Positions 18,922-60,808 of a DNA stretch of 64,000 bases are shown here, in pieces; within the stretch, counting starts at the first letter, position 1, and each line of letters opens with the position of its first letter. The notes beneath the pieces are model-generated. The model saw only the letters and a list, made by a program, of their open reading frames with translations. It was not told where the DNA came from and made no database searches. Source of the stretch: Candidatus Nealsonbacteria bacterium (GTDB taxonomy: Bacteria; Patescibacteriota; Minisyncoccia; Minisyncoccales; RBG-13-42-11); assembly GCA_026396115.1 (NCBI GenBank), contig JAPLXL010000002.1, positions 69,142 through 133,141 of the forward strand, given 5' to 3'. The translations under genes were made by a program, and so were the position numbers.

Positions 18922-18929
18922 ACACTTTC

Positions 18930-29918: not shown

Positions 29919-29966
29919 TTTATTTATTAGTATTTATTAATTTTTTTCGACCTTTTTTGTTTTTCT

Positions 29967-32069: not shown

Positions 32070-32091
32070 TTCACTGACTATTTTAAAAACT

Positions 32092-34501: not shown

Positions 34502-34515
34502 AAAGAAGCTTCGGT

Positions 34516-35208: not shown

Positions 35209-35255
35209 CAAAAAGTAGATATTGATTAAGAATAAGATATATTTAGCAAAAAAAT

Positions 35256-36263: not shown

Positions 36264-36274
36264 TATTTAAATCA

Positions 36275-37388: not shown

Positions 37389-37394
37389 AAATAT

Positions 37395-38126
37395 ATGAAA
37401 ATATTTGTTGATTCAGCTGACACGGAAGAGGTTAAAAAATATCTTTCCTGGGGTCTTTGCGACGGGGTAACCACTAACCCCACTGTTTGTTTAAAATGCG
37501 GAGTTACCGGTGGCATGGAAGGGATTAAAAAGCGTTCTTTGGAAATTGCCAAATTAATTACTCCTCGGACGCTTAGTGTTGAAGTTACCAGTGAAAATCC
37601 GGAAGAGATTCTTGAACAAGCGAGAGATTATGCTAAATTAGCCGAAAATATTGCTGTTAAGGTAACTATTACTGATAGAGAGGGAAATAGTTTCTTGCCG
37701 GTCATCCGTCAATTAGTTAGTGAAGGAATAAGAGTTAATGTCACAGCGATGACTACTTTCAACCAGGCAATCTTCGCTGCTAAAGCAATTAGGGCAGGAA
37801 TGGAAGCAAATCCTGAAAAAGCCAAAATTTCTCATTTTATCAGTGTTTTTGGCGGAAGAATATCTGAGGAACAAGGAGTGGAGCGGACTTTCCAGGTTCT
37901 GAAAGATCTTCGAAATTGGCTTGATTTCCACCGGTTTAAAGGAATTGAAATTATTGTTGGTTCGGTAAGGACCCCGGAGAATGTTGAGTATTGGTCAAGA
38001 ACAGGTGCTCATATTTTGACCATTCCCCCCGAAGTAATTGCTAAATCTTTGCTCGGAGCAAGAACGAAGGAAACAGTGGCTCAATTTATAGAAGATGCCA
38101 AAAAATCAATGGAGGAATTGGGGTAG
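37395..38126 (+). CDS. transaldolase / fructose-6-phosphate aldolase family (short type)
   Basis: MKIFVDSADTEEVKKY...CDGVTTNPT and the IAVKVT Schiff-base lysine context. Confidence 0.8.
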   Translation: MKIFVDSADTEEVKKYLSWGLCDGVTTNPTVCLKCGVTGGMEGIKKRSLEIAKLITPRTLSVEVTSENPEEILEQARDYAKLAENIAVKVTITDREGNSFLPVIRQLVSEGIRVNVTAMTTFNQAIFAAKAIRAGMEANPEKAKISHFISVFGGRISEEQGVERTFQVLKDLRNWLDFHRFKGIEIIVGSVRTPENVEYWSRTGAHILTIPPEVIAKSLLGARTKETVAQFIEDAKKSMEELG

Positions 38127-38165: not shown

Positions 38166-38744
38166 ATGCCAAAGATCATTCTTTCTAAGAAGGGAAAAAT
38201 TTTAGAGTTTTCAATTGCCCTGTTTTTAATTTTGATAGGAGTTAGCCTAAGATTTCTTCCTCATCCTCCGAATTTCAGCCCTGTTATTGCTATTTCTTTA
38301 TTTGGAGGGGTTTATTTTTCAAAGAGGATAGCCTTTATTTTGCCGATTTTGATAATGTTAATCAGTGATATTTTTATTGGTTACTATGAAATTGGCTTGA
38401 TGGCTTCGGTTTATGGAAGTTTTGTCTTATGTGTATTTTTAGGCTCTTGGTTAAAAGAACATAAAAAATGGCAGACAATTTTGGGAAGCTCTATTTTATC
38501 CGCTCTTATATTTTTCATTTTGACAAATTTTGCTGTTTGGGCTTTTACTCCCTGGTATGCTAAAACTTTCTCTGGAATAATTCAGTGTTATCTAATGGCT
38601 TTGCCATTTTTCAAAAATACTCTGTTGGGAAATTTCTTTTACGTAGCTGTCCTATTTGGGACTTATGAAATAGCAGAAATTTGGATAAGAAAAAAGTTTA
38701 GAATAATTGAATCGTTACCTGCTTTTGTAAATGCAAAGATATGA
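38166..38744 (+). CDS. six-TM membrane protein (DUF6580-like); possible small-molecule or vitamin uptake component
   Basis: 192 aa. RFLPHPPNFSPVIAISLFGG resembles the PHxPNFxP..A..LFGG signature I recall for the DUF6580 putative-transport family. Its stop overlaps the start of the B12-binding radical SAM gene. Confidence 0.35.
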   Translation: MPKIILSKKGKILEFSIALFLILIGVSLRFLPHPPNFSPVIAISLFGGVYFSKRIAFILPILIMLISDIFIGYYEIGLMASVYGSFVLCVFLGSWLKEHKKWQTILGSSILSALIFFILTNFAVWAFTPWYAKTFSGIIQCYLMALPFFKNTLLGNFFYVAVLFGTYEIAEIWIRKKFRIIESLPAFVNAKI

Positions 38745-40339
38745 AAATTACTTTTATCTCGCTGATAGAAGATGTTTCTATACCGGGTTTACGTTTTTTG
38801 TCGGCTTTCATCAAACAGAAAGGCCATGAATCGGAGATTATTATGCTTCCAAGGTCTTATTCTGAGGGACTGAATGACTCTGTCTCTTTTTTATATCCTT
38901 ATCCTGATATTGTTCTTAAACAACTTGTGGAAAAATGCAGTCAGTCCGATTTGATTGGTATTTCCTTGATGTCTTGTCATTTTGATAACGCTGTTTATAT
39001 CACCCGTTATTTACGTAAACGGCTATCCTGTCCAATAATTTGGGGAGGAATTCATCCCACTATACGACCGTTGGAGTGCTTAGATCATGCCGATATGGTC
39101 TGTGTGGGAGAGTCCGAGTTGAGTCTCGACATGTTAATGGAAAGAATGTCTAATGGAGAATCTTGGAAGTCAATTTCTGTCCAAGGGATACTTAGACAAG
39201 GAGAAAAAAATGACCAATTTCTCCCAGGACCTATTTTGGAAGATTTAGAGAAATTGCCTCTGCCGGATTATGATTTAGAAGACCAGTTTCTTTTATATGA
39301 AAAAAACCGAATAGTTCAACTAGATAAAAATCTTTTAGTCCGCTGTCTTTATGGCTCCTATGTAACAACTCTTTCACGGGGCTGTCCCTATGCTTGTACT
39401 TATTGTTGCAATAACGCTTTGAATAAAATATACAAAAGAAAACTGCCTATCAGACACCGACTTGTTAAAGACATAATAGAGGAATTAGAAATGGCAAAAA
39501 GGTCCATACTAGGGTTGAGAGAGATAATTATAACAGATGATGCCTTTTTTGCTCAAACTCAAGAGAGAATAGAAGAGTTTTCTGAAGAATATAAGAGAAA
39601 AGTAGACCTGCCCCTTAAAGTTCTTACTACCCCTGTTACTTTTACATTATCTAAGGCAAGAGCATTAGTAAAAGCAGGGTTGTGTGCCACGGCAGTAGGC
39701 ATCCAGTCAGCCAGTTTACGAATCAGAGCCCTGTATAATCGGTCTGACACATTAGAGCAAGTATTAGCGGTTGGAGATGTCGTTAGCCAAGTGGCCGAAG
39801 AAACTAAAAAGAAAATAGATATTCGTTATGACTTTATTTTGGATAATCCTTGGGAGAATGAAGAAGACCTCAAAGATAGCATTCGTTTTGTTTTAAAACT
39901 AAAAAAACCCTTCAGTTTAATGTTGTTTTCATTAACATTTTATCCGGAAACAGTTCTTTATAAAAAAGCTCGTCAAGAAGGAATTATTTGGGATGACTTG
40001 AATCAGGTTTATAGAAAAAGTCAATTAGCTCCTAATCGCAGTTATTTCAATGCCCTATTGGCACTGGCCGGTTTAGGAATGTCAAAATTTCTAGTCGAAA
40101 GGTTGTTAAATACACATATCTCTAAAAAGCACTTAGTCGGTTCCTTATATTTTTTAGTTAGTTTATATACATTAAAGAAAGAGTTAAGAAGCGTTATAGT
40201 TAAAGGTTTTTTGCGCGGGGACTTTCAATGGGTATATACCGCATTTTTGATATTTCTTGGAAGAATAAAGCAAAAGTTCGTTTCAATGAGACATACCGAA
40301 CTGGTAAGATTTAAAGGAAAAGCAGGGGAAATTCAATAA
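38741..40339 (+). CDS. B12-binding-domain radical SAM enzyme (class B)
   Basis: N-terminal B12-binding-like region (IGISLMSCHF...PIIWGGIHPT), then the radical SAM cluster motif CPYACTYCC. Confidence 0.8.
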   Translation: MKITFISLIEDVSIPGLRFLSAFIKQKGHESEIIMLPRSYSEGLNDSVSFLYPYPDIVLKQLVEKCSQSDLIGISLMSCHFDNAVYITRYLRKRLSCPIIWGGIHPTIRPLECLDHADMVCVGESELSLDMLMERMSNGESWKSISVQGILRQGEKNDQFLPGPILEDLEKLPLPDYDLEDQFLLYEKNRIVQLDKNLLVRCLYGSYVTTLSRGCPYACTYCCNNALNKIYKRKLPIRHRLVKDIIEELEMAKRSILGLREIIITDDAFFAQTQERIEEFSEEYKRKVDLPLKVLTTPVTFTLSKARALVKAGLCATAVGIQSASLRIRALYNRSDTLEQVLAVGDVVSQVAEETKKKIDIRYDFILDNPWENEEDLKDSIRFVLKLKKPFSLMLFSLTFYPETVLYKKARQEGIIWDDLNQVYRKSQLAPNRSYFNALLALAGLGMSKFLVERLLNTHISKKHLVGSLYFLVSLYTLKKELRSVIVKGFLRGDFQWVYTAFLIFLGRIKQKFVSMRHTELVRFKGKAGEIQ

Positions 40340-40347
40340 AATATAAA

Positions 40348-41271
40348 ATGAGATTATTAGATAAAATTAAAGGGCGATTGGAATTATATACAGGCCTAAT
40401 TAAACATAGGAAGGAAATAAAAGAACTATATCGTTCTTTTGACGAGATAACGAAGAAAGATTTTCTCTCGATATTAAAACTTAACTTAATCAGATCCTTG
40501 AAGCCGTATTTTTTATTTGAAGGAGAGAAAAAAGATTACAATTTTTACAGCTCTGAAGATAAAGCTCTTATCTTTGATAGTTACATTTTTAAACCAGCCG
40601 AAATAAAACAAAATTTCCAAAAGAATTCTTTTTTAGAAATAATTCGAGGGTATTCTGTTCTTGTTGAGGAAATTTTAATCACTAAGGCCTATGAAGATGA
40701 AGAAGTAAAGATTGAATCAAAAGATATTGTTTTGGATTGCGGTGCTAATATTGGCATATTTTCAATTTATGCGTCTAAAAAAGCAGAAATGGTTTATGCA
40801 TTTGAGCCGGGCAGGAATGAAATCACCTCATTACATGAGAATAAAACACTTAACAACTGTAATAATATAAAAATTATTCCTAAAGCAATATTAGATAATA
40901 GCAAAGGCGCAAGATTAGTTTTATGGGGGGTTGTAAGTAGTTATTTGGTCAGTAAAGAAAAAAAAGAAAATAAGGAAGAAACCGATGAAGAAGATGTCTT
41001 AGACATAGAAACTATTTCTATTGATGAGTTTGTTAAAAAAGAAGGTTTAGAGAAAGTAGATTTTATAAAAATGGATATTGAAGGTTCAGAAAGAAAAGCT
41101 CTTCTTGGTGCTAAAGAAACTTTAAAAAAGTTTAAACCAAAATTAGCATTATCTATTTACCATAAATTTAGTGATTTTTATAAACTTCCTCTTTTGATAA
41201 AAAGATTAAACCCGGATTATAAAATAAGGGTAAAAAATAAAAAGGGGACATTAATGACTTATGCTTATTAA
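40348..41271 (+). CDS. FkbM-family methyltransferase
   Basis: VLDCGANIGIFSIYAS ... FEP ... FIKMDIEGSE. Confidence 0.8.
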   Translation: MRLLDKIKGRLELYTGLIKHRKEIKELYRSFDEITKKDFLSILKLNLIRSLKPYFLFEGEKKDYNFYSSEDKALIFDSYIFKPAEIKQNFQKNSFLEIIRGYSVLVEEILITKAYEDEEVKIESKDIVLDCGANIGIFSIYASKKAEMVYAFEPGRNEITSLHENKTLNNCNNIKIIPKAILDNSKGARLVLWGVVSSYLVSKEKKENKEETDEEDVLDIETISIDEFVKKEGLEKVDFIKMDIEGSERKALLGAKETLKKFKPKLALSIYHKFSDFYKLPLLIKRLNPDYKIRVKNKKGTLMTYAY

Positions 41272-41304
41272 AAATTGGCGGTGTTGGAAAGATTAATAAT
41301 TATT

Positions 41305-42189
41305 ATGGACCAAAAACTAAATATAATTCCACCTTCAGTGAAAGCCGGAGAAAAAAACTGGTTGAAGAGGTGGATAAAAAATAACAAAAGTTTATATCCT
41401 CTCTTTTATAGGTTGTTACGGTGTAATCGTGATGTCTTTATATTGAGAAATTTTTGGATAAATACAGATACTCTCTTTAGCTCAGTTGAGATAGAAACTT
41501 GCTCTATTTGTAATAGAAAATGCCCTTTCTGTCCGGTTGCTTATGATAACAGCCAAAAAGTGATAATGTCCGATGAAATTTTTAATAAAATAATAACTGA
41601 ATTAAAAGAATTAAACTTCAAGGGTGAGATTGCTTTTGCCGGTTACGGTGAGCCATTACTAGATAAAAGATTAGAAGAATTTGTAAAGAGAATAAAAAAA
41701 GAATTAGGTTCTTCTGTTGAAATTGTTACAAACGGTGATTTTTTGACTTACGAAAGATTTAAACAGCTTATTTCTGCAGGTGCGGATACTTTTCGCTTAA
41801 GCCAGCACGATAAGGAACCTTCAGAACAAATTAAAGAATTTTTTAGTAATGTTCAAAAAAATGAACTAAAATATATAATATTTCAAACAGCAACCGAAGG
41901 TTCAATAACATTCACTAATCGTGGTGGATCAGTGAAGATGAAAACTTTACATCCCTTTTATTGTGCTCCTATGCATTTAATTATTAGAGCTGACGGGAGT
42001 GTTCCACTTTGTTGTAATGATTATTACGAAGAAGTGAAATTGGGAAACGTAACCAAGCAAAGAATAATTGATATCTGGAACAAACCCTTTTATAGAGAAA
42101 TTAGGAATGAAATAAAAAGAGGCATTTTCAACCTTGAAATTTGTAAAAAATGCTTAGACCTTAAACCGTTTGAAGATAGAAATATTTAG
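41305..42189 (+). CDS. radical SAM / SPASM-domain enzyme
   Basis: CNRKCPFC (CxxxCxxC). C-terminal Cys-rich region CAPMHLIIRADGSVPLCCNDY ... CKKC. The ATG at 41305 is preferred; the ORF-track TTG is at 41275. Confidence 0.75.
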   Translation: MDQKLNIIPPSVKAGEKNWLKRWIKNNKSLYPLFYRLLRCNRDVFILRNFWINTDTLFSSVEIETCSICNRKCPFCPVAYDNSQKVIMSDEIFNKIITELKELNFKGEIAFAGYGEPLLDKRLEEFVKRIKKELGSSVEIVTNGDFLTYERFKQLISAGADTFRLSQHDKEPSEQIKEFFSNVQKNELKYIIFQTATEGSITFTNRGGSVKMKTLHPFYCAPMHLIIRADGSVPLCCNDYYEEVKLGNVTKQRIIDIWNKPFYREIRNEIKRGIFNLEICKKCLDLKPFEDRNI

Positions 42190-42245
42190 TAGTTTAGAGA
42201 TAAAATTAGTAATTTTTATAATTTATAAATTTATTAAAATAAAAA

Positions 42246-43118
42246 ATGGATATTTACAAAAAACTACTTAAAAATCGTTTTGGTGATATAAAATATTTTT
42301 TTTGGTTATTTAAAAATTGGTATAATCTAAAAAGAGATAACTATTCTTTAACGTCATTTTTAAAGTATTGGATTCTATATTTTTTCCCTCGTTTTTTTTA
42401 TGGTAGAAGCAAATCCATTGATATCTCTAAAAATATTATTTCGCGTTTTAAAAATAATAATCTTATAATTCCCTTACCAATTAAAAATAAACCATATTAT
42501 TATATAGGACTTAGAGATGCAGGTGACTTTTATATGTTTCGTGAAGTTTGCGTAGATGATGATTATAATGTATCTCAAATAAAAGTAGGGATGGTTATTG
42601 TAGATGCCGGAGCTCATATTGGGACATTCACTCTCTTGGCGAGTAAAATGGTTGGTGAACAAGGAAAAGTTATTGCCATTGAACCTGAACAAGATAGTTT
42701 TCTGCAATTAACTAAAAATTTAGAAATAAATAAAATAAAAAATGTAATCCCTATAAACATTGGTTTAAGTGATTTCAATGGTAATAAAGATTTTTTTGTC
42801 GATAAAGAATCAGCTTGTAGTTCTTTTATTTTAAATTCTGATCGGCAGATTATAAGTAAACCCAGTATTAAGGTAAAAACCCTAGATAGTGTTCTTCAAG
42901 AAATAAATATTGATAAAGTCGATTTTCTTAAAATTGATACAGAGGGCGCGGAACTGGAAATTTTAAAAGGAGCAAAGCAAACTATAATTGAGAATCCTGA
43001 AATAAAAATGGTAATTGCATCTTATCATTATCCGAAAGAGAAAGAAGAAGTATTTCAATATTTAAAAAGTTTGAAATTCTCTCCAAAAATTTTAGGAGAC
43101 TTAATAATAATACAATAA
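42246..43118 (+). CDS. FkbM-family methyltransferase
   Basis: IVDAGAHIGTFTLLAS ... IEPE ... FLKIDTEGAE. Confidence 0.8.
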   Translation: MDIYKKLLKNRFGDIKYFFWLFKNWYNLKRDNYSLTSFLKYWILYFFPRFFYGRSKSIDISKNIISRFKNNNLIIPLPIKNKPYYYIGLRDAGDFYMFREVCVDDDYNVSQIKVGMVIVDAGAHIGTFTLLASKMVGEQGKVIAIEPEQDSFLQLTKNLEINKIKNVIPINIGLSDFNGNKDFFVDKESACSSFILNSDRQIISKPSIKVKTLDSVLQEINIDKVDFLKIDTEGAELEILKGAKQTIIENPEIKMVIASYHYPKEKEEVFQYLKSLKFSPKILGDLIIIQ

Positions 43119-43134
43119 TAATGATCAGTAAGAC

Positions 43135-44073
43135 ATGAGAGAGCATATGAATAAATTATTGCCGGAAATTAGTATAATTATTCCTACCTATAAACGTTCT
43201 CATTTAATAGGACGAGCTATTCAAAGTGTTTTAAATCAAACTTACCAAAATTTTGAAATTGTAATAATTGATGACAGTCCAAATGATGATACCGAAAAAA
43301 CTATAAAAAAGTTTAATGATAAAAGGATAAAATATGTCAGAAATAAAATTAGAAGAGGATTTATTGGTGCAAAAAATCAAGGGGTTAAAGAGTCTAATCC
43401 GAGTTCAAAATACATTGCTTTTCTTGACGATGATGATGAGTGGCTGCCACAATTTTTAGAAAAAACAATAAGAGTACTGGAAGAAAAAAAAGATATTGCA
43501 ACTGTTAGTAGCTATGCTGAATTGAGGAGTCAAGACGGGAAATTTATCAGAAAAATGACTGGTGAGAGTAATGAGTTTTGGAAAGTAAGGGTCGGAAATG
43601 GCTCTGTTATAAGAAAAGAGATATTTGAAAAGGAAAATATCTGGTTTGATGAAAAAATACTATTTGAAGATTTGGATTTCGGAATTAGAATGGCCAAAAA
43701 CCATAAATGGGAATGTATACCGGAGGCATTACGGATATATTATGGTTATCCGGCAGTGATAGGAGAATCACATTCAACATCTTTCACACAAGAAACACCG
43801 TCGGAAGAATTAGAATATTTTTATAAGAAAAACTACGAGATTTATAAAAAAGCTGGGAAAAAGGCATTAGCATGGATTCATTTTATTATTGGAAAAACTT
43901 TTTGTAGAGCAGGAAAAATAAAAGAAGGAAGGACTCATCTCTTAAAAGCTCTTAAGATTTATCCACGACCAGAATATCTTTTTTATTATCTTCTAGCTCT
44001 GTTTTTTCCAAAAGCTTTTAAAAACCTTTCTTTGATAATTTTAAAACAAAAAATTTTTCGGGGGAAACTTTAA
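43135..44073 (+). CDS. family 2 glycosyltransferase
   Basis: ISIIIPTYKRSHLIGRAIQSVLNQTYQNFEIVIIDDSPNDDT ... FLDDDDEW. Confidence 0.8.
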   Translation: MREHMNKLLPEISIIIPTYKRSHLIGRAIQSVLNQTYQNFEIVIIDDSPNDDTEKTIKKFNDKRIKYVRNKIRRGFIGAKNQGVKESNPSSKYIAFLDDDDEWLPQFLEKTIRVLEEKKDIATVSSYAELRSQDGKFIRKMTGESNEFWKVRVGNGSVIRKEIFEKENIWFDEKILFEDLDFGIRMAKNHKWECIPEALRIYYGYPAVIGESHSTSFTQETPSEELEYFYKKNYEIYKKAGKKALAWIHFIIGKTFCRAGKIKEGRTHLLKALKIYPRPEYLFYYLLALFFPKAFKNLSLIILKQKIFRGKL

Positions 44074-44092
44074 TTTTAAAAAGTTTTTTATA

Positions 44093-44845
44093 ATGATTCA
44101 AAAAAGTGATAACAAACAGTATTTTTTAGAAACTCAACGATTTTACAACCGCTTATTTGAAGATGACGACCATTATGGAATTAAGGAGTACTGGCACGGC
44201 TGGGCCGGTAATTTGCATAGATATAAAGTTAAATTATTAAGAGATATTTTTATTAATACCCTGAAATGTCAAAAGAATACTCAGATATTAGACATTGGTT
44301 CCGGTATTTCACCATTCAGAGAAATCTTTAGGCCAGAAGAATGTCCTCAAATAACAGCCTTTGATATCTCAACTGTCCTTATCCAGAAAGCAAAGAAAAT
44401 TTGCCCTTATATAAAATCAATAGTAGATGATGCTCAGAATCCAAAAATTGAGGGGAAATGGGATATATTATTTGCTGGTGAAATAATTGAACATTTACCG
44501 CGCCCCAAGGAAGCTCTTCTAAAATGGAATGATTTGGTAAAAAAAGGAGGTTGGTTGGTAATCTCCACACCAAATCGCCACTTTAGCCGAAAAACCAAAG
44601 AGCATATTTCTCTTCTAACCATAAGCGAAATGAAAAAGATGCTTGGTCAGTTAAATTTTAAGATAGTAGAGATAATTGGTGTTGATGTATTTATTCCTTT
44701 CTTGGACCGTTTTTTACATAAACTTGCCAAATATCTGCCGAAGATTTCACCAGTATCTGATAGAATATTCCAAATAAAAATAGGGTTAACTTTTCGATTA
44801 CCTTGGTTAGCCCGTGACATAGTCTATATTGCAAAAAAACGTTGA
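44093..44845 (+). CDS. class I SAM-dependent methyltransferase
   Basis: ILDIGSGISPF (motif I) ... DILFAGEIIEHL. Confidence 0.7.
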   Translation: MIQKSDNKQYFLETQRFYNRLFEDDDHYGIKEYWHGWAGNLHRYKVKLLRDIFINTLKCQKNTQILDIGSGISPFREIFRPEECPQITAFDISTVLIQKAKKICPYIKSIVDDAQNPKIEGKWDILFAGEIIEHLPRPKEALLKWNDLVKKGGWLVISTPNRHFSRKTKEHISLLTISEMKKMLGQLNFKIVEIIGVDVFIPFLDRFLHKLAKYLPKISPVSDRIFQIKIGLTFRLPWLARDIVYIAKKR

Positions 44846-44890
44846 GACCTGAAAAATACCAATAAATAAATTATAAAGTAAACAACGCTT

Positions 44891-45802
44891 ATGTATAACC
44901 AAAAAAATAATTTTATTAGACCCCATAAGAAGGCAAAGAGCATGCGAAAAATATTGTTTTCAATGTATAAAAAAATTTTTAATCTCCTTCGTGGGCATAA
45001 ACTCAAATTATTTTATCCCGTTAGAATTGTTAATAATTTTATATTCTCTCTCTTGAAACCAGATTTTACCAATGTTCAAGGACATAAAATGTTTTTAGAT
45101 TCAAAAGATTCTCTTGAGCTTTCTGTTAAAGAAGTTTATGAGTCACTTCAAACAGAATTAGCCAAAAAAGAAATTAAAAAGGGAGATGTCGTTTTAGATA
45201 TTGGAGCAAATATTGGATATTTTACCTTAATTTTCGCAAAACTTGTTGGCGAAAATGGTAAAGTTTTTGCTTTTGAGCCAGATCCAGGCAATTTTTCATT
45301 ACTTGAAAAGAATGTAAAAATAAATAACTATCAAAACGTGACTTTAATTCAAAAAGCAGTTTCAAATAAAACTGGAAAAGCTAAATTGTATATATGGAAA
45401 AACACTCTAGGCCCTAAAATATACGATTCACCCGATAGCCATCAATATATCGAAATTGAATCTATAAGGTTAGATGATTATTTCAAGAATTATAATGGAA
45501 AGATCGATTTTATCAAAATGGATATAGAGGGAGCTGAAGGGGGAGCGACACAAGGAATGACCTCACTTTTACAGCAAAATAAAAACATAAAAATTATTTC
45601 AGAATTTTGGCCTGCTGGACTCGAAGAATTTGGTGTGGGACCTGAAGAATATCTAAAATTACTCATTGGGCAAGGTTTCAAATTGTATAACCTCAATCAG
45701 CAAAAAAAGAAAATAGAACAGGTTAATATTACTGAATTATTAGAGATATGTCCTAAAAAAGAAAAAGCTACAAATCTATTCTTGACAAAAAATAATAAAT
45801 AA
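44891..45802 (+). CDS. FkbM-family methyltransferase
   Basis: VLDIGANIGYFTLIFA ... FEPDP ... FIKMDIEGAE. Confidence 0.8.
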   Translation: MYNQKNNFIRPHKKAKSMRKILFSMYKKIFNLLRGHKLKLFYPVRIVNNFIFSLLKPDFTNVQGHKMFLDSKDSLELSVKEVYESLQTELAKKEIKKGDVVLDIGANIGYFTLIFAKLVGENGKVFAFEPDPGNFSLLEKNVKINNYQNVTLIQKAVSNKTGKAKLYIWKNTLGPKIYDSPDSHQYIEIESIRLDDYFKNYNGKIDFIKMDIEGAEGGATQGMTSLLQQNKNIKIISEFWPAGLEEFGVGPEEYLKLLIGQGFKLYNLNQQKKKIEQVNITELLEICPKKEKATNLFLTKNNK

Positions 45803-45811
45803 TAAAAAGAC

Positions 45812-46906
45812 ATGGTAGAAAATTTAAATCAATCAGAAATCAAATTAGGAGCCCATTATTACCTCTGGTATGGAAGACCCACCTTTCCTCTTTTAGGCGG
45901 GGGAGTATGGAAATCAGGTTATAAGCATCAGCCACTTTTGGGTGAATATAACAGTCGAGACCCCCAAGTAATCAACCAGCATATTAATTGGGCAGAGGAG
46001 GCAGGAATTGATTTTTTCGTTATCAGCTGGAACGATTCTGGTAGCTGGGACGATATTACTTTAAAAGATTATTATCTAAAGCAGTCGCAGGCCTCGGAAA
46101 TAAAATTCTGTCTTCACTATGACAGTTCTTTAGCCCTGAACGTCTTTAGAAATCCGGTTTCTTACGATTTTAATGATAAATACTCTCCCTTTAAAACTAA
46201 GGGAGAAAAATTTCTGGAGGATTTTGAATATCTTGCCGAGACCTATTTTAATCACTCCCAGTACTTAAAAATAAACAATCGCCCCTTGGTGATAATTTAC
46301 AATACTTCTCTCTTTAAAAATGTTTCCCATTACTTTGATAAATTGCAGGCTAATATGGAAAAAAGAGGAATTTCACTCTTTTTGGTTGCCGATGTAGTTC
46401 ATTGGGCTGGTGTTAAATTAACTAAAAAAAACCTGTCGTATCTTTGGGAAATGCCGCCAAAGGAGGTAATAAAAATTTTTTTTCGAGTAATGCACCGTTT
46501 TTCTTTAAATAATTTAGAAGAGGATGTTTTTTTGAGTAAATACTTTGATGGTATTACTGGATATAATATGTATTCAATCAATCGGACAGTAAATTTTCTT
46601 GAAGATGTAGATGAGGTATATCAAAAATTTTTTAGTTATACGCGTTCTCATAAGCTCTGCTTTATTCCTACCGTTATACCGGGTTATGATGATAGAAATC
46701 TCAGCGGGTTAAATCGTCCGATTTTGGAAAGAGAAGAAGGTAAATTTTATGAGGATTTTTGGGCGATAGCAAAAAAATACCTTGATCCTTCCCTTAAAAT
46801 GGTCTTAATCACCACTTTTAACGAGTGGCATGAGGGGACAGAAATTGAACCTTCTAAGGAATATAGTAATAGGTATCTTGAAATTACTAGGTTGTTAAAA
46901 AATTAA
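45812..46906 (+). CDS. GH99-like / WbsX-like glycan-processing protein
   Basis: GAHYYLWYG ... PLLGEYNSRDPQVINQHINWAEEAGIDFFVISW ... TTFNEWHEGTEIEP resembles the GH99/WbsX fold signature. No signal peptide. Confidence 0.45.
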   Translation: MVENLNQSEIKLGAHYYLWYGRPTFPLLGGGVWKSGYKHQPLLGEYNSRDPQVINQHINWAEEAGIDFFVISWNDSGSWDDITLKDYYLKQSQASEIKFCLHYDSSLALNVFRNPVSYDFNDKYSPFKTKGEKFLEDFEYLAETYFNHSQYLKINNRPLVIIYNTSLFKNVSHYFDKLQANMEKRGISLFLVADVVHWAGVKLTKKNLSYLWEMPPKEVIKIFFRVMHRFSLNNLEEDVFLSKYFDGITGYNMYSINRTVNFLEDVDEVYQKFFSYTRSHKLCFIPTVIPGYDDRNLSGLNRPILEREEGKFYEDFWAIAKKYLDPSLKMVLITTFNEWHEGTEIEPSKEYSNRYLEITRLLKN

Positions 46907-46958
46907 AGGTTAAATAAGCCAGTTGAAATACTGGTTAAATCATAATATCATTTGAAAT

Positions 46959-47957
46959 ATGGCTAATATTTTTTCTAAAGTTAAAAGGGCAACAATGATG
47001 CACGTCAACCCAGAACTTTGTCGGCCCAAAGCGGCTCGTTTAATCATTACTACTAATTGTCAGTTTCGCTGTCAAATTTGTACTTTTTGGCGTGAAAAAC
47101 CTCTAGATGCAAGTTTGGAAACCATAAAATACTGGATTAAAGAACTAGCCGATTTCGGAATCAAAGAAATTGATTTGGGCGGCGGAGAACCGCTTTTAAG
47201 GAAAGATTTGCCAGAGATTATTGAAGAAGTTAAATCCTACGGAATAAAATGCGGTCTGACGACTAATGGTTGGTTAGTGAGCCAGATTCCTTTTCCATCC
47301 CTTGATTATATTGATATTTCAATTGATGGGGCTAAACCAGAAACCCACGATAAGATTCGGGGGGTAAAAGGTGCTTGGGAAAGAGCAATCAAAGCGGCAG
47401 AAATTGCCAAAAAACACTGTCCCACCCGTTTGAATTTTGTTTTACAGACAGATAATTATCTTGAATTGGTTGATTTTTGCCACTTGGCAAGGAAATTGGG
47501 AGTAAGCGTTGGTGTGATACCGGTTAGTTTGAAGCTGGCTGCCCAACCTTGGATTTCAAATCATTTGAGTCAATACGATATTCCTCTTTTGAAGCGTCAG
47601 ATCACTCAAGCCTTGGAAACAGGAGTTATTGTAAATAATAAAGAATTTTTAAAAATATTCCTGACTAAAGTAGAAAAAGGGCCTTTTCCTCAAAAATGTC
47701 TGGCTCCTTTTTACTGCGTATTGATTTTTACCAACGGCGATGTTTATCCCTGTGGGAATTTCGATGTACCGGTTGGCAATCTTTCAATAGGAAAGAGTTT
47801 TGAAGATATTTATCAAAATTACGAAAATATGCGAAAAGAAATTCAATCGGGTTCTCACCAGTTTTGTAACCAGTGTGTTTACTCTGACATTGCTACCCGG
47901 GGAACGATTCGTTCAAACATTATTCCTTTCCTCAAAAAAAGTCTGAAGAAAAAGTAG
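46959..47957 (+). CDS. radical SAM / SPASM-domain enzyme
   Basis: CQFRCQIC (CxxxCxxC). CLAPFYCVLIFTNGDVYPCG ... CNQC auxiliary-cluster cysteines. Confidence 0.8.
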   Translation: MANIFSKVKRATMMHVNPELCRPKAARLIITTNCQFRCQICTFWREKPLDASLETIKYWIKELADFGIKEIDLGGGEPLLRKDLPEIIEEVKSYGIKCGLTTNGWLVSQIPFPSLDYIDISIDGAKPETHDKIRGVKGAWERAIKAAEIAKKHCPTRLNFVLQTDNYLELVDFCHLARKLGVSVGVIPVSLKLAAQPWISNHLSQYDIPLLKRQITQALETGVIVNNKEFLKIFLTKVEKGPFPQKCLAPFYCVLIFTNGDVYPCGNFDVPVGNLSIGKSFEDIYQNYENMRKEIQSGSHQFCNQCVYSDIATRGTIRSNIIPFLKKSLKKK

Positions 47958-48015
47958 TTATATATTTTAATAATTTTCCCCCGGAGATATAAAAGTCAAT
48001 TTGGTATTTTAAGTA

Positions 48016-48837
48016 ATGAAATTTATGGCTAAAAATCAGATAAAAATTGGATTAATCGGTGGAACCGGTTTTTATGAATTTTTTAAAGGGAAAACCAAAG
48101 AGGTTGAGGTAAGAACAAAGTTTGGTTCACCTAGCGACAAAATAACTATTGGGAATTTATTTGGAAAAAGGGTGGCTTTTTTGCCGAGGCATGGCAAGAA
48201 ACATCAATTTCCTCCCCATCTTGTTCCCTATAAAGCCAATATTGCCGCTCTAAAAAAACTTGGCGTTGAAAGAATTATTGCCACAACCGCTGTTGGTTCT
48301 TTAAGGAAAAACATAAAACCAGGGGATTTTGTAATCTGTGATCAATTTGTTGACAGAACCCTCAGAGGAAAAGAAAGTACCTTTTTTAATGGGCCGCAAG
48401 TAGCCCATATAGAAATGGCTTATCCTTATTGTTCAGAATTGAGAAAAATTGCCATTGCTCAGGCTCAGAAATTAAAGATTAGAACTCATCCCAAGGGAAT
48501 TGTAGTGGTAATTGAAGGACCAAGATTCTCAACATTAGCCGAAAGTCTTTGGTTTTCTAAAAGTGGCTGGGATTTAGTAAATATGACTCAATATCCAGAG
48601 ATAGTTCTGGCTTCAGAGCTTGGTATATGTTATTTAAATATTTCTTTAGTTACAGATTATGACGTTGGAATATATTCAAAGAAGAATATAAAACCGGTTT
48701 CAATTGAAGAAGTTTTGAAAAATTTTAAAAATAATACAGAAAAATTAAAGAAAATAGTTTTAGCTATTATAAAAAATATATCAGAAAAAAGGGAATGCGA
48801 ATGTGAATCGAAAGCTAAACGAGCTATTTTAAGTTGA
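48016..48837 (+). CDS. mtnP: S-methyl-5'-thioadenosine phosphorylase
   Basis: IGLIGGTGFY ... FLPRHGKKHQFPPHLVPYKANIAALKKLGVERIIATTAVGSL ... VNMTQYPE is an MTAP signature. Confidence 0.85.
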   Translation: MKFMAKNQIKIGLIGGTGFYEFFKGKTKEVEVRTKFGSPSDKITIGNLFGKRVAFLPRHGKKHQFPPHLVPYKANIAALKKLGVERIIATTAVGSLRKNIKPGDFVICDQFVDRTLRGKESTFFNGPQVAHIEMAYPYCSELRKIAIAQAQKLKIRTHPKGIVVVIEGPRFSTLAESLWFSKSGWDLVNMTQYPEIVLASELGICYLNISLVTDYDVGIYSKKNIKPVSIEEVLKNFKNNTEKLKKIVLAIIKNISEKRECECESKAKRAILS

Positions 48838-48855
48838 TTTTTCCTAAAAAATAAA

Positions 48856-50049
48856 ATGATTAAAACTATAAAAAAATATTTGGAGTTTCTAAAAAATTTG
48901 ACCATAATTCCTTGGAAATATAAAAAATCTATTTGGCACCTATTGAGAAAAAAAGGCTTAAAGAGTGTTGGAAATTTTCTTTTTGTAAAATATTTTGTTG
49001 CCGACGAAGGCGGGGAAGCGGCAGTTTTAAACAATTTAATTACGGCAACAAAATTATCCTCTTTGGCCCCTTATCCATTTAAGATTGAGGTAGAACATAC
49101 CACCATTTGTAATAAAAAATGTATTATTTGCGAAAGAAGCTACTGGGGAGAAAAATCAGAAAGATTAACTTTTGAGCAATTTAAAAAAATAATTGACCAA
49201 TTTCCTAAATTGAAATGGATTAATGTTACCGGTGAAGGAACCGGTTTTCTTAACCCTGATTTTCTGAAAATAATTGAATACTTGAGGTCAAAAGATATTT
49301 CGGTTAATTTTGTTGATGAGTTTGATTTTATTGATGAAGCTAAAGCCAGAAAACTGATAGAATTGGGAGTAAACTGTATTTGGATTTCAATGGATGGAGC
49401 GACAAAAGAAATCTACGAAAAAATAAAGGTTGGCTGTAATTTTGAGAAAGCAGTAAATAACATAAAAATGCTACTGAATTTAAAAAAACAGCTCCATTCG
49501 CCGTTTCCTATGCTCTGTTTCCGATTTGTTGTTAATAAATTAAATTACAAAGAAATGCCAAAAATGGTAGAGCTTATTCATTCATTGGGGGATTTAGGCG
49601 AGGGAAGCAAATTAGAATTTGTAGGACTTCTTACTTTTAAAGAAATAGAAAAATATTATTTGCCGGAAATCCCAAAAGAAATTTTAGAAGAAACAGTTGA
49701 AACAGGTAGAAAATTAGGAATAAGAGTCAAATTTTCTCATATCAGCGAAAGTAAACTTTCTGCAATTGAGAAATGTGCCGCCTGGACCGAGCCCTATATA
49801 ATGATAGGAGGCTATGTTTTACCATGCTGTGCGGTATTGATGTCCAACAAACGAGATTTTTTGAGAAAATATGCTTTCGGCAACTTCTACCAGCAACTAT
49901 TTAAAGAGATATGGTATTCGGAAAGATATAAGAAGTTTCGGAAAATGGTCTTAAAAAATAATGAAAAAGTTCCTATTCTTTGCGTCGGTTGCCGAGCTTA
50001 TAATACAACCGAGAGAGAAAAAAGATACGGCTGTTCAAGTTCAATTTAA
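48856..50049 (+). CDS. radical SAM / SPASM-domain enzyme
   Basis: CNKKCIIC (CxxxCxxC). CAAWTEPYIMIGGYVLPCC ... CVGC auxiliary-cluster cysteines. Confidence 0.8.
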   Translation: MIKTIKKYLEFLKNLTIIPWKYKKSIWHLLRKKGLKSVGNFLFVKYFVADEGGEAAVLNNLITATKLSSLAPYPFKIEVEHTTICNKKCIICERSYWGEKSERLTFEQFKKIIDQFPKLKWINVTGEGTGFLNPDFLKIIEYLRSKDISVNFVDEFDFIDEAKARKLIELGVNCIWISMDGATKEIYEKIKVGCNFEKAVNNIKMLLNLKKQLHSPFPMLCFRFVVNKLNYKEMPKMVELIHSLGDLGEGSKLEFVGLLTFKEIEKYYLPEIPKEILEETVETGRKLGIRVKFSHISESKLSAIEKCAAWTEPYIMIGGYVLPCCAVLMSNKRDFLRKYAFGNFYQQLFKEIWYSERYKKFRKMVLKNNEKVPILCVGCRAYNTTEREKRYGCSSSI

Positions 50050-50064
50050 AGAGCAGAGAGAAAC

Positions 50065-50856
50065 ATGTTGCCAATTATTAAAAAATTTATTATTAAAATT
50101 GAAAGACAAATAGTGAAAATTCTTTTGTCTTTTCGGAAAGATGTGGTTTCTTTTGACCCGCCGCCAAGCGGAATGAATAAAGAAACTGTCTTAAAAAAAG
50201 TTGCCGAGGTTCCATTTTGGTGGCACTCCATAGATTTTGGTTACGGGATAGTGACCCCAGGCCATCAGGGGGGGATCAAGCATCCAACCGGGACAAAGAA
50301 TCTTTTGGGCAATCTTCAGCTTCCAGATGATCTAAGGGGTAAGAGTGTTTTGGATATTGGAGCCTGGGATGGTTTTTTCAGTTTTGAAGCAGAAAAAAGA
50401 GGAGCTTCAAGAGTTTTAGCCATTGATAATTTTTATCGGGATAAATTAGAACATACCGGGAGCCAAGGATTTGAAATAGCCAAGGAAATTTTAAAATCTA
50501 ACGTTGAATTTAAAAAAGCCAGCGTTTATGATTTATCTCCAGAGAAATTTGGCATGTTTGATATTGTTTTATTTTTAGGTGTTTTTTATCATCTCCGGCA
50601 CCCCCTGCTGGCTTTAGAGAAAGTTTTTTCGGTAACCAAGGAAATGCTGATTATGGAGACCCATTACGACCCCTATCACGATAGTAAAACTCCTTTGGCT
50701 GTATTTTATGAAAACGCCGAAATAAACAACGATCCTACTACTTTTTGGGGTTTTAATAAATCGTGTCTTCTGGCAGTTCTGCGTTCAGTTGGATTTAAAA
50801 ATCCAGAGGTTATTTACCGCTATGCTGACCGCATTATTCTTAAGGCATATAAGTAA
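50065..50856 (+). CDS. class I SAM-dependent methyltransferase (DUF1698/CmoB-like)
   Basis: WWHSIDFGYGIVTPG, then VLDIGAWDGFFSFEA. Confidence 0.65.
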   Translation: MLPIIKKFIIKIERQIVKILLSFRKDVVSFDPPPSGMNKETVLKKVAEVPFWWHSIDFGYGIVTPGHQGGIKHPTGTKNLLGNLQLPDDLRGKSVLDIGAWDGFFSFEAEKRGASRVLAIDNFYRDKLEHTGSQGFEIAKEILKSNVEFKKASVYDLSPEKFGMFDIVLFLGVFYHLRHPLLALEKVFSVTKEMLIMETHYDPYHDSKTPLAVFYENAEINNDPTTFWGFNKSCLLAVLRSVGFKNPEVIYRYADRIILKAYK

Positions 50857-50858
50857 AG

Positions 50859-52547
50859 ATGATTGAAAAAAGAGAAATTATTCAACAGTGGCAGTATCTT
50901 GGTAGAGTCCATCCGGAATTACTGGAAGATAAAGTTTTTGAACACTGCCAAAAATCTGGCATTACTAGTTTACAATCTTATCTTTATTGGGCCGAAATTG
51001 AAAAAGAGCCGGAGAAAATTGACTTTTCAAGCTATGATATTTTAGTTGAGAAGTTAAAAGAACATAATTTAAAATGGGTTCCTTTTTTTATCTTAGGACC
51101 CGATTACGCCACGCCTGATTGGTTTAAAAAAACAAATGAATCGGTTTACGCTCAATGTCTTGAACATAAAAAAGAATCAAAGATTCAATCAATCTGGAAT
51201 CCTTTTTTGCCGGAATGGGTGGATAGATTTTTAAGGATTGTATCCGAACATTATCAAGATAAAAGTGTTTTAGAGAGTATTTGTTTGGGTATCAGCGGAA
51301 ATTGGGGAGAATCTATTTATCCTGTTGAAGGGGGTTTTCATAAAAATTTTCACAGCCATCAAGGTTGGTGGTGCGAAGATAAATATGCGGTTCAAGATTT
51401 TAAGAAATATATTATTAGAAAGTATGATTCTCTTAGTGAACTTAATAATGCCTGGAAAACGAATTTTTCAAGTTTTGAATTAATAAATTTCCCAAATTTA
51501 AGATACTCTTATCCTTTGAGCCGTGAAATTTATAAATTCATACCGTTTTTTCTAAGGCCCGGCGTGAAATTTATTTATAATCTTGTAAAAAATAATTTTA
51601 AAAAAGAGATTAAAGATATCACAGGTCAGCAGCAATGGCTGGATTTCACTGAATGGTATATGGCTTCTATGACTAATTGGGCGGAATTCTGGTTTGAGAC
51701 AGCGCGGAAATATTTTCCAGATAGTGAAATATATTTAGTGACCGGCGGAAATGGTAATCCTATGCTGGGTGCCGATTTTTCCGCTCAAACAAAAATAGCG
51801 GCAAAATATAAGGGAGGGATTAGAATTACTAACCAAACAGATGATTATTCTTACAGTTTTGCCTTTGCTCGGCTAATTTCTTCAGCAAGTAAATTTTACG
51901 GGTCTTATTTTACCACCGAGGAAGTTTGGATTAACAAGCCAGAGAGAGTGATGATGCGGATATTTGATGTCATAACCTCAGGAGCTAAAGGGTTTTATTG
52001 TAAGAATATTATTGGCACAGGCAGAGATTATTGCACTAAGAAAGATTTTTCTGCAGGGGAACCAACTAAAGGAGCAGAAATTTTATCCAAAAACCTCCAT
52101 TATTTTCAATTATCTAAGCCGATTGTCAAGGCGGCTATTTTTTTCCCAAATACCTCTATTGCCTTTGAGCCTTTAATTTTAGACCTTTTGTATAAACAAT
52201 GCGCAAAACTCCGTGATGTGTTAGATTTTGATTTATTAGATGAAAATATGATAAGAGACGGTGCTTTGGAGAAATATCAATATCTTTTAGTTTTAAAAGG
52301 AAAAATACCGGAAGGTGAGATCTCAGAAAGAATTAAAAATTGGATCAAGAAAGGTGGCATTCTTAGTTCTGATCCCAAGATAATTGCCAGCGATATTGAT
52401 AATGAATATGACCGAGTTTATGCCACTCGATTTGCTGATAAAATTATGTATTACAATGCCAATGATTTTGAAGTGAGAAAAAAAGTTGGCTCAAAATTTA
52501 TAAAAATTGAAGGGAATTCAATAAAAATAGAGCAAAATAAATTATGA
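50859..52547 (+). CDS. cytoplasmic TIM-barrel glycoside-hydrolase-like protein (GH42/GH14-like)
   Basis: SLQSYLYWAEIEKEPEKIDFSSYDILVEKLKEHNLKWVPFF resembles the N-terminal strands of clan GH-A enzymes. Assignment is weak. Confidence 0.35.
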   Translation: MIEKREIIQQWQYLGRVHPELLEDKVFEHCQKSGITSLQSYLYWAEIEKEPEKIDFSSYDILVEKLKEHNLKWVPFFILGPDYATPDWFKKTNESVYAQCLEHKKESKIQSIWNPFLPEWVDRFLRIVSEHYQDKSVLESICLGISGNWGESIYPVEGGFHKNFHSHQGWWCEDKYAVQDFKKYIIRKYDSLSELNNAWKTNFSSFELINFPNLRYSYPLSREIYKFIPFFLRPGVKFIYNLVKNNFKKEIKDITGQQQWLDFTEWYMASMTNWAEFWFETARKYFPDSEIYLVTGGNGNPMLGADFSAQTKIAAKYKGGIRITNQTDDYSYSFAFARLISSASKFYGSYFTTEEVWINKPERVMMRIFDVITSGAKGFYCKNIIGTGRDYCTKKDFSAGEPTKGAEILSKNLHYFQLSKPIVKAAIFFPNTSIAFEPLILDLLYKQCAKLRDVLDFDLLDENMIRDGALEKYQYLLVLKGKIPEGEISERIKNWIKKGGILSSDPKIIASDIDNEYDRVYATRFADKIMYYNANDFEVRKKVGSKFIKIEGNSIKIEQNKL

Positions 52548-53677: not shown

Positions 53678-53682
53678 AATCT

Positions 53683-54711: not shown

Positions 54712-54715
54712 ATTT

Positions 54716-60797: not shown

Positions 60798-60808
60798 AAT
60801 ACAAAAAT

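Follow-up and report, generated by a model that had tools for sequence, protein, structure and literature searches.

The stretch of DNA analysed here (hereafter the window) comprises 64,000 nucleotides of the Candidatus Nealsonbacteria assembly GCA_026396115.1 (contig JAPLXL010000002.1, positions 69,142 to 133,141 of the forward strand), and its region of interest is a run of 13 genes at 38166-50856 in which four genes for radical S-adenosylmethionine (rSAM) enzymes are interspersed with genes for methyltransferases and glycosyltransferases. The 13 genes are best read as a mosaic of two transferable cassettes that form the variable middle of one glycan operon, and their four rSAM enzymes probably act on sugars, either nucleoside diphosphate sugars (NDP-sugars) or lipid-linked glycan, and not on a ribosomal peptide; to this reading as a whole we assign a probability of about 0.8. 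Radical tailoring of sugars had been suggested by an earlier inspection of the DNA letters alone (the sequence-only reading), and the proposal is supported by six independent lines of evidence, namely the homology of one enzyme to BtrN, the profile matches of a second, the conserved NDP-sugar partner genes, natural fusions to glycosyltransferases, the absence of a peptide open reading frame (ORF) and the failure to reach any curated maturase cutoff.

The class of chemistry represented by BtrN, DesII, AprD4 and GenK is already established in antibiotic biosynthesis, and to our knowledge rSAM tailoring of sugars is known almost only from such pathways. The present locus would place it in ordinary surface-glycan operons, with one cassette common to dozens of uncultivated bacterial and archaeal lineages. 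If the reading is correct, new sugar-nucleotide chemistry is to be expected, including a short-chain dehydrogenase/reductase (SDR) that works without its catalytic tyrosine, and unusual methylated, oxidised or deoxy sugars are predicted on the surfaces of archaea and of bacteria of the candidate phyla radiation (CPR), where surface glycans probably mediate host attachment and phage resistance. A small set of three or four genes would then be available for heterologous reconstitution. The conserved core cassette, which reaches to 55441 and hence beyond the 13 genes that drew attention initially, is the more interesting object.

Six-frame ORFs searched with Pfam and NCBIfam reproduced exactly the gene order, the domains and the four CX3CX2C motifs that had been reported for the 13 genes. 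These are enclosed by a 31-gene glycan array at 32047-62640, all of it on the forward strand, with intergenic distances between -19 and +58 nt; the four gaps remarked on previously measure 56, 52, 58 and 18 nt. A methyltransferase gene lies directly 3' of three of the four rSAM genes, in agreement with the repeated pairing noticed before, and the region holds five methyltransferase genes in all. Three nucleotidyltransferase genes and several SDR genes are present in the operon, and Pfam and NCBIfam annotation of the flanking genes bears out the description of the neighbours as carbohydrate-active.

One of the four enzymes, rSAM A (41275-42189, motif CNRKCPFC; Pfam Radical_SAM and SPASM), is clearly a BtrN-family Twitch enzyme by sequence and fold. 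BtrN is the Twitch radical SAM enzyme that acts as 2-deoxy-scyllo-inosamine dehydrogenase in butirosin biosynthesis. A phmmer match to BtrN (PDB 4m7t; E 5e-28, 28% identity) covers residues 64-296 of rSAM A and spans all of BtrN; the CX3CX2C motif, the four auxiliary-cluster cysteines and the arginine of the SNRGG segment, for which the role of base in BtrN has been proposed, are all aligned. In the AlphaFold2 model (mean predicted local distance difference test score, pLDDT, 88.5) the fold was matched by Foldseek to BtrN with an E-value of 1.4e-19, a template-modelling (TM) score of 0.86 normalised on BtrN and a root-mean-square deviation of 2.1 A, while the next match in PDB was weaker by 12 orders of magnitude (E 1e-7). 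Across the 113 sequences of the family, Cys79/83/86 and Cys230, Cys246 (Cys247), Cys290 and Cys293 are conserved, and the SNRGG arginine (Arg216) is at least 90% conserved. Published gene calls for rSAM A begin 9-30 nt later. The enzyme differs from BtrN in a helical N-terminal extension of about 65 residues and in its setting, which is a surface-glycan operon with heptose genes and a family 2 glycosyltransferase (GT2) instead of an aminoglycoside cluster, with no aminotransferase following. By homology, rSAM A is a putative sugar secondary-alcohol dehydrogenase. Other BtrN-like homologues are found in archaeal and CPR glycan loci with up to five rSAM genes carrying a B12-binding domain.

All four rSAM proteins exceed the Pfam cutoff for PF04055. 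In alignments of homologues with the window protein (113, 74 and 119 sequences for rSAM A, B and C, respectively), the cysteines of CX3CX2C are near-invariant (113/113, 72-74/74 and 119/119), and the C-terminal cysteine patterns, Cx15C(C)x42CxxC in A, Cx17Cx37CxxC in B and Cx16CCx50CxxC in C, show a BtrN-like spacing. The seven-cysteine motif of two-cluster SPASM enzymes, with its CX2CX5CX3C element, is absent from all three family alignments. Because only four to five auxiliary cysteines are conserved, with this spacing and without that motif, rSAM A, B and C are assigned to the Twitch type, to which BtrN, MoaA, SkfB and SpeY belong, with one predicted auxiliary cluster each, and not to full SPASM enzymes. 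Pairwise identities of 27-31% over partial lengths argue for three separate families, so that the three SPASM paralogs of the sequence-only reading were not borne out on either count. None of the four rSAM proteins reaches the cutoff of any NCBIfam family, those of peptide maturases included, and rSAM B, rSAM C and the B12-domain enzyme are, as judged from their sequences, outside every curated family; if the sugar reading is correct, proteins with a Pfam SPASM match should not be taken for peptide maturases by default.

The best PDB matches of rSAM B (46959-47957, CQFRCQIC; Radical_SAM and SPASM) are PqqE, BlsE and SkfB, confined to the rSAM core, and its conserved cysteines are Cys34/38/41 with Cys247, Cys265, Cys303 and Cys306. 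In rSAM C (48856-50049, CNKKCIIC; Radical_SAM and SPASM) the invariant cysteines are Cys85/89/92, Cys194, Cys307, Cys324, Cys325, Cys376 and Cys379. A single-sequence search of PDB with rSAM C matched the Twitch domain of BtrN only, and the family profile retrieved, in rank, BtrN, DesII, viperin-like enzymes and SkfB; the best solved relatives of the profile (BtrN, DesII and the viperin-like enzymes) are modifiers of sugars or nucleotides, which suggests a comparable substrate class. The AlphaFold2 model of rSAM C (pLDDT 90.2) has an all-helical N-terminus of 65 residues without the winged helix of a recognition element (RRE) for peptides that are made ribosomally and modified post-translationally (RiPPs).

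HMMER searches of 1.84 billion cluster representatives (50%-identity clusters) returned 247 relatives of rSAM C at E<=1e-30, and 310 relatives were confirmed in the GTDB species-genome collection. Among the best 150, at least seven are fused to an Anp1/GT-A glycosyltransferase domain; other fusion partners in this set are GT2, a methyltransferase together with GT2, a family 4 glycosyltransferase (GT4) at either end, YdjC, an aldo-keto reductase together with ferredoxin, and Methyltransf_24. The existence of methyltransferase fusions indicates that the pairing of rSAM and methyltransferase genes is functional and not accidental. Inteins or LAGLIDADG homing-endonuclease domains interrupt some relatives of rSAM C (among P0212, P0409, P0429, P0474 and P0475), and tandem double or triple rSAM-Twitch fusions occur in P0491 and P0454.

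The gene neighbourhoods of rSAM C were compared in 83 loci, of which 79 were kept from a scan of one genome per GTDB species (all of them metagenome-assembled genomes) and four came from contig look-ups. For the loci, referred to below by L numbers, annotation relied on searches of six-frame ORFs with the window's own proteins as queries, a procedure that leaves unrelated neighbours unseen, with orthologue thresholds of at least 300 bits for the SDR, 250 for the nucleotidyltransferase NTP2, 200 for the glycosyltransferase GT4a and 300 for the glycoside hydrolase family 42 (GH42)-like protein. Two cassettes emerged. The second of these (44891-55441) has a core of four genes, rSAM C, GT4a (52544-53677; Pfam Glycos_transf_1), the SDR Epi2 (53683-54711) and NTP2 (54716-55441), the last being an AglF/RmlA-like sugar-1-phosphate nucleotidyltransferase (NTP_transferase 121 bits; best NCBIfam match AglF at 166 bits, under its cutoff). 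Orthologues of Epi2 were found in 36 of the 83 loci, of GT4a in 32, of NTP2 in 31 and of the GH42-like gene in 14. GT4a adjoins rSAM C in 23 of 32 loci, SDR and NTP2 stand side by side in 29 of the 30 loci having both, and nearly all partner genes (96/99) lie on the rSAM C strand. The bacterial lineages represented include Patescibacteria, Omnitrophota, Nitrospirota, Chloroflexota, Planctomycetota, Elusimicrobiota and Desulfobacterota, and the archaeal ones include Hadarchaeota, Methanoperedenaceae, Syntrophoarchaeum, Heimdallarchaeota, Bathyarchaeota and Nanoarchaeia.

An extended form of cassette 2, which occurs in CPR bacteria and some archaea, adds, in the window's order, an FkbM methyltransferase, a GH99-like protein, rSAM B, a CmoB-like methyltransferase and the GH42-like protein; it is present in L006, L007, L011, L013, L014 and L089, while Hadarchaeota and Bathyarchaeota have part of it. 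In eight of the nine loci with an rSAM B orthologue, no more than 1.2 kb separates this gene from rSAM C, and the matches of the two proteins apparently fall on many of the same contigs. The CmoB-like gene adjoins rSAM C in five of the nine loci that have it, GH99-like orthologues precede rSAM B in L006, L007, L013, L014 and L089, and an orthologue of FkbM methyltransferase 3 is placed directly 5' of the GH99-like gene in L006 and L089. The surroundings of the cassette differ between loci: in L006 they contain NeuB and CMP-sugar genes, in L007 aminosugar genes together with those for a carbamoyltransferase and GT9.

Cassette 1 (38166-44073) consists of genes for a DUF6580 protein, the B12-domain rSAM enzyme, rSAM A, FkbM methyltransferases and a GT2. 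In L090 it follows directly on HddA-GmhA-GmhB-transaldolase and reads DUF4430, DUF6580, an ORF joining a flippase to a BtrN-like enzyme, the B12-domain enzyme, three FkbM genes and GT2, the FkbM genes being 3' of the B12-domain rSAM orthologue there also. On both sides of rSAM A or after it, orthologues of the window's GT2 occur in L002 (403 and 285 bits), L089 (480 bits) and L090 (367 bits). Both flanks of the window's operon are kept in L002 around a different middle, in which only the BtrN-like enzyme is retained, between two GT2 genes; L002 and the window together follow the arrangement of O-antigen- or capsule-type loci, in which the centre is hypervariable. In L090 the heptose block precedes cassette 1, in L002 it precedes the variable region, and the downstream flank (55459-62640) recurs with high scores in L002 and L011. 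The flippase fusion of L090 (4733-7087) is a 784-residue ORF in which a Wzx-type flippase (Polysacc_synt) is joined in frame to the BtrN-like rSAM domain; its origin is either natural or an error of assembly, and a genuine fusion would link the BtrN-like enzyme to the export of a lipid-linked glycan. Several such enzymes in one glycan locus had been considered unusual, and this holds only outside CPR bacteria and archaea, within which rSAM-rich glycan loci recur. A literature search found no paper on the rSAM C cassette or on BtrN-like enzymes in polysaccharide loci, the sole related item being an unstudied rSAM gene beside a methyltransferase gene in the capsule locus of Campylobacter jejuni HS:19.

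The SDR of the core cassette is an extended SDR resembling CDP-tyvelose 2-epimerase, its best solved relatives being TaTyvE (PDB 9rl0, E 2.8e-55) and StTyvE (1orr, E 4.8e-47). Shared with these enzymes are the Gly-rich NAD motif and, from the catalytic triad, Thr and Lys. The segment SPYGCSK of TyvE, however, is replaced by TPLH[AVT]SK in all 37 SDR orthologues (TPLHVSK in the window; further examples at 14853-15884 of L006 and 8076-9104 of L023), such that the catalytic Tyr164 is substituted by Leu with an invariant His beside it, and Asn125 of the TNK segment is changed to Ile or Val. The Thr-Tyr-Lys triad and the Asn125 on which CDP-tyvelose 2-epimerase depends, where the N125A substitution abolishes the activity of TaTyvE (PMC13098431), are hence incomplete in this protein. 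Other SDRs of the window retain SPYxxxK. A second difference from the epimerase is that the Tyr-less SDR is always linked to a Twitch rSAM gene.

The B12-domain enzyme of cassette 1 (38741-40339, CPYACTYC) combines a B12-binding domain (PF02310, 42.3 bits against a cutoff of 32.1) with the rSAM domain (59 bits), which is the class B architecture. A single-sequence search gave no PDB match. A broad profile (A3) retrieved AprD4 (6fd2) with an E-value of 2.4e-38, and because such a profile may overstate the similarity to AprD4, a profile of orthologues only (A4) was also run, which again placed AprD4 at the top (E 1.3e-9, 40 bits), followed by CysS and TokK. Orthologues were found in L090 (857 bits) and in the archaeal locus L004 (252 bits). 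The proposal of class B C-methylation is upheld as far as the B12-binding domain and the rSAM core are concerned; the methylation itself is unproven, because the nearest solved relative, AprD4, is a non-methylating dehydratase. We are undecided between a C-methylase and an AprD4-like dehydratase of a sugar, C-methylation being one possibility and not the default. The architecture and the weak profile matches to TokK and CysS recall the class B sugar C-methyltransferases (GenK, GenD1 and Fom3, with TokK, CysS and TsrM as solved relatives), from which the enzyme differs in reaching no curated family cutoff, cobalamin binding and methyl transfer being putative. In L003 (GCA_040960625.1, 252041-272868), L053, L055 and L057, three to five separate B12-domain rSAM genes stand among genes for glycosyltransferases, a flippase and PMT_2 proteins, a pattern much denser than that of the window.

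The gene before the B12-domain enzyme encodes a polytopic membrane protein with a DUF6580 domain (38166-38744; Pfam 179 bits) and overlaps it by 4 nt. Genes for DUF6580 adjoin those of B12-domain rSAM enzymes in the window, in L090 (3667-4677) and in L050 (9418-9996), and are paired with DUF4430 in L006 (13760-14847) and L090. Transcobalamin-like B12 binders have DUF4430 as their C-terminal domain (PMC4350170). Searches of PDB returned no meaningful sequence match for DUF6580, the known S-components of energy-coupling factor transporters for B12 included, and a literature search found no published mention of the domain. From gene context, DUF6580, with DUF4430 in the relatives, may be a candidate pair for corrinoid capture and uptake.

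Between rSAM B and rSAM C in the window lies a gene for methylthioadenosine phosphorylase (MTAP, 48016-48837), which passes the equivalog cutoffs of TIGR01694 (289.3 bits, cutoff 274.85) and PRK07823 (320.3 bits, cutoff 306). It is missing from this position in L006, L007, L011, L013, L014 and L089, where B abuts C, and is found in only two of the 83 loci, the close relative L010 and, near rSAM C, L030 (7803-8618); MTAP is a lineage-specific insertion and not part of the cassette. It most likely clears methylthioadenosine (MTA) and 5'-deoxyadenosine, the inhibitory by-product of rSAM enzymes; 5'-deoxyadenosine is known to inhibit such enzymes and to enter MtnP-dependent salvage (PMC8102628). 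The gene accompanies rSAM C in two distant lineages, in which rSAM C is 82% and 48% identical to that of the window (48% in L030), and it may have been recruited repeatedly for the clearance of 5'-deoxyadenosine.

The evidence on the substrate bears first on the possibility that the Twitch/SPASM enzymes are peptide or protein maturases acting on a substrate encoded elsewhere, such as a pilin or an S-layer glycoprotein. With anSME, PqqE, SkfB, SuiB and the sactisynthases they share an rSAM core and a C-terminal Cys-rich Pfam SPASM domain, weak NCBIfam similarity extends to sactipeptide, ranthipeptide and PqqE maturases, and the structural neighbourhood of rSAM C includes SuiB and SkfB. The NCBIfam scores are nevertheless far below the cutoffs, so that no placement in a curated peptide-modifying family was seen; one auxiliary cluster is predicted per protein instead of two; rSAM A matches BtrN specifically; and the conserved partners and the fusion partners are NDP-sugar enzymes, glycosyltransferases and methyltransferases. 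Since no gap in the operon exceeds 58 nt, there is no room for a precursor peptide gene, and the only small ORF that is not buried in another gene is a low-complexity TTG ORF of 33 residues, which leaves no credible precursor ORF. The sequence-only reading had reported no peptide substrate gene and had suggested a look at orthologous loci; no small ORF was found conserved within 3 kb of the homologues of rSAM A, B and C in 160 loci, the only recurring ones being translations of a tRNA gene in three related Nitrospirae contigs and ORFs of identical contigs. Pfam detected no PqqD or RRE domain in the rSAM proteins, and the modelled N-termini of rSAM A and C are exclusively helical; as some RiPP rSAM enzymes lack an RRE, this absence is supportive and not decisive. 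The maturase explanation was rejected on the small-ORF evidence from the window and the 160 loci, and we regard it as very improbable. No more credence is given to the idea that the rSAM genes encode maturases of cofactors, metalloenzymes or lipids that are simply carried in the operon. It draws on the top NCBIfam matches, W_rSAM_matur (maturase of a tungsten-cofactor oxidoreductase) at 139 bits for rSAM C, PTO1314 at 113 bits for rSAM B and rSAM_ladder_B12 at 83 bits for the B12-domain enzyme; these scores are well under the respective cutoffs of 380, 306 and 360, and the operon genes overlap or are at most 58 nt apart, with the linkage to NDP-sugar genes kept across phyla and fusions to glycosyltransferases in relatives.

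A third explanation assigns MTAP a place in the pathway itself: an rSAM enzyme would add the 5'-deoxyadenosyl radical to an acceptor derived from a sugar and an MTAP-like phosphorylase would remove adenine, yielding a chain-extended ribosyl-1-phosphate sugar for the nucleotidyltransferases. The logic has precedents in the HpnH/HpnG (hopanoid) and MqnE/MqnB (futalosine) pathways, and the position of MTAP between rSAM B and C, its recurrence near rSAM C in the distant L030 and the three nucleotidyltransferase genes of the operon would suit it. The distribution of MTAP described above, its passing of the cutoffs for the housekeeping enzyme and the retention in rSAM A-C of Twitch clusters typical of dehydrogenase/epimerase-type enzymes argue to the contrary; adenosylation followed by de-adenination was set aside as the principal explanation, MTAP being absent from nearly all related loci, and is considered very unlikely. 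For cassette 1 alone, a possible if rather unlikely variant is that the B12-domain enzyme is a cobalamin-independent 1,2-diol dehydratase of the AprD4 type that removes oxygen from a heptose or hexose, the resulting ketone then being reduced by one of the operon's SDRs. AprD4 is the best solved relative with both profiles and several SDR genes are at hand, but the similarity does not extend beyond the rSAM core and is weak for the orthologue group, the N-terminal domain exceeds the Pfam cutoff for B12 binding and matches the B12 domain of TokK, the linked DUF6580 and DUF4430 genes hint at a corrinoid supply, and with five methyltransferase genes the product is in any case heavily methylated.

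Several observations weigh against the preferred reading of two sugar-tailoring cassettes. Foldseek comparison of the rSAM C model with PDB is indiscriminate, SuiB and SkfB appearing beside BlsE, DesII, viperin and anSME with TM scores of 0.5-0.6, so that only the profile search of sequences yielded a ranking, and SkfB, a Twitch-type sactisynthase, illustrates that having only one auxiliary cluster is compatible with a peptide substrate. For the rSAM families in general, substrate, regiochemistry and reaction type are inferred from sequence relationships, and for the B12-domain enzyme the nearest solved relative is AprD4 and the use of cobalamin is only putative. In rSAM C loci with at least 5 kb on both sides, only about half carry the partner genes (SDR 24/47, NTP2 22/47, GT4 20/47), the remainder having more distant nucleotidyltransferases and GT4s. 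The SDR without its tyrosine may be non-catalytic, and the four heptose enzymes of the upstream block all score below their equivalog cutoffs (HddA 144 against 600, GmhA 58 against 209, HddC 105 against 300 and GmhB at the domain level only).

Under the preferred reading, the BtrN-like rSAM A of cassette 1 would abstract the carbinol hydrogen of a secondary sugar alcohol and oxidise it to the ketone, the electron being taken up by an auxiliary [4Fe-4S] cluster predicted by homology; the substrate could be a heptose or the sugar transferred by GT2. The B12-domain enzyme would either C-methylate an unactivated sugar carbon or dehydrate a diol in the manner of AprD4, the FkbM enzymes would methylate, GT2 would transfer the sugar and DUF6580 would import corrinoid. 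In cassette 2, NTP2 would activate a hexose-1-phosphate, and rSAM C together with the Tyr-less SDR would remodel the NDP-sugar by abstracting hydrogen from an unactivated carbon, the outcome being oxidation to a ketone, epimerisation or, in the style of AprD4/AprD3, deoxygenation; the invariant Cys194 of rSAM C, which is not a cluster ligand, is a possible hydrogen donor in an epimerisation. GT4a would install the product, rSAM B and the CmoB-like methyltransferase would add a further modification, and MTAP would remove the 5'-deoxyadenosine, and MTA, made by the four rSAM enzymes. Once an rSAM dehydrogenase had supplied a keto group, an ordinary SAM-dependent methyltransferase could C-methylate the neighbouring carbon, which would explain the alternation of rSAM and methyltransferase genes. 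As a tentative extension, held at somewhat less than even odds, the four-gene core may encode a hitherto undescribed radical pathway that makes a modified nucleotide sugar and in which the rSAM enzyme and the non-canonical SDR, with His in place of Tyr, form an obligate pair, for example for epimerisation or deoxygenation; its product would be a widespread and so far unseen glycan component in CPR bacteria, Omnitrophota, Nitrospirota, Planctomycetota, Hadarchaeota, anaerobic methanotrophs (ANME/Methanoperedens), Heimdallarchaeota and Bathyarchaeota, and the rSAM/methyltransferase pairs would be units in which radical oxidation activates a sugar carbon for subsequent methylation.

Such a scheme has counterparts among known sugar systems. 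The C3' deoxygenation of apramycin is carried out by AprD4/AprD3, an rSAM diol-dehydratase and an SDR reductase, and AprD4/AprD3 and DesII exemplify rSAM enzymes that act on sugars in partnership with an NAD(P)-dependent SDR. The closest solved relative of the B12-domain enzyme is AprD4, and DesII is a weak profile match of rSAM C; the similarity is low in both cases and limited to the rSAM core, the enzymes described here reside in primary surface-glycan operons of uncultivated anaerobes, and the partner SDR has no catalytic Tyr. The block upstream of cassette 1 (32047-38126; Pfam) encodes an SDR epimerase, a Wzx flippase and HddC-like (nucleotidyltransferase), HddA-like (GHMP kinase), GmhA-like (SIS isomerase) and GmhB-like (HAD phosphatase) proteins followed by a transaldolase. 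The best NCBIfam matches of its contiguous sugar genes are HddC, HddA, GmhA and GmhB, and on these sub-cutoff matches and the gene order the block looks like a supply of NDP-heptose (GDP-heptose), comparable with the GDP-D-glycero-alpha-D-manno-heptose pathway of Campylobacter capsule and S-layer glycan loci. Heptose tailoring in Campylobacter employs NAD-dependent dehydrogenases, epimerases and reductases, whereas the linked tailoring genes here are for rSAM enzymes. A short gene of the transaldolase/FSA family closes the heptose block in the window (37395-38126), in L002 (3909-4640) and in L090 (1932-2672) and presumably supplies sedoheptulose-7-phosphate.

The other genes of the 13-gene region and its downstream continuation are as follows. 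FkbM methyltransferase 1 (40348-41271; Methyltransf_21, 72 bits) and the RfbT-like FkbM methyltransferase 2 (42246-43118; Methyltransf_21 83 bits, V_cholerae_RfbT 32 bits) flank rSAM A, and the GT2 gene is at 43135-44073 (Glycos_transf_2, 120 bits). A class-I SAM methyltransferase gene (44093-44845; Pfam Methyltransf_23), with an orthologue of 402 bits in L089, precedes FkbM methyltransferase 3 (44891-45802; Pfam), at which the extended cassette 2 begins. The GH99/WbsX-like TIM-barrel protein (45812-46906; Glyco_hydro_99 89 bits, Glyco_tran_WbsX 79 bits) and the GH42/GH14-like TIM-barrel protein of the extended cassette (50859-52547; weak Pfam matches) have no signal peptide and are regarded as cytoplasmic, and the CmoB/TIGR04290-like methyltransferase (50065-50856) matches Methyltransf_9 and TIGR04290 (123 bits, cutoff 300). 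The downstream flank (Pfam) comprises a nucleotidyltransferase, an SDR, two GT4 enzymes, UDP-glucose dehydrogenase, a further SDR and a GFO oxidoreductase. No Rfam element or tRNA was detected in scans of the window, and therefore no B12 or SAM riboswitch precedes the operon; a scan for promoters and terminators at the operon start yielded matches at chance level only.

Elsewhere in the window, genes for FtsA, FtsZ, ComEC, ClpB and HtrA mark the DNA as that of a bacterial genome. Two tandem paralogues of a family-5 solute-binding protein of 557 residues and a gene for a HAMP-domain protein (28245-31640, reverse strand, and 27096-28127) lie directly upstream of the glycan operon, in divergent orientation. 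A second GH42/GH10-like TIM-barrel gene followed by a GT2 gene at 6866-8778 echoes the pairing of GH-like and glycosyltransferase genes in the operon. A protein of 1058 residues encoded on the reverse strand at 15564-18740 is weakly similar to the DNA methyltransferases of MADS (MAD2) and BREX (PglX), and the stretch holding it (14000-20000), a possible defence island, has a GC content of 0.30, compared with about 0.35 elsewhere.

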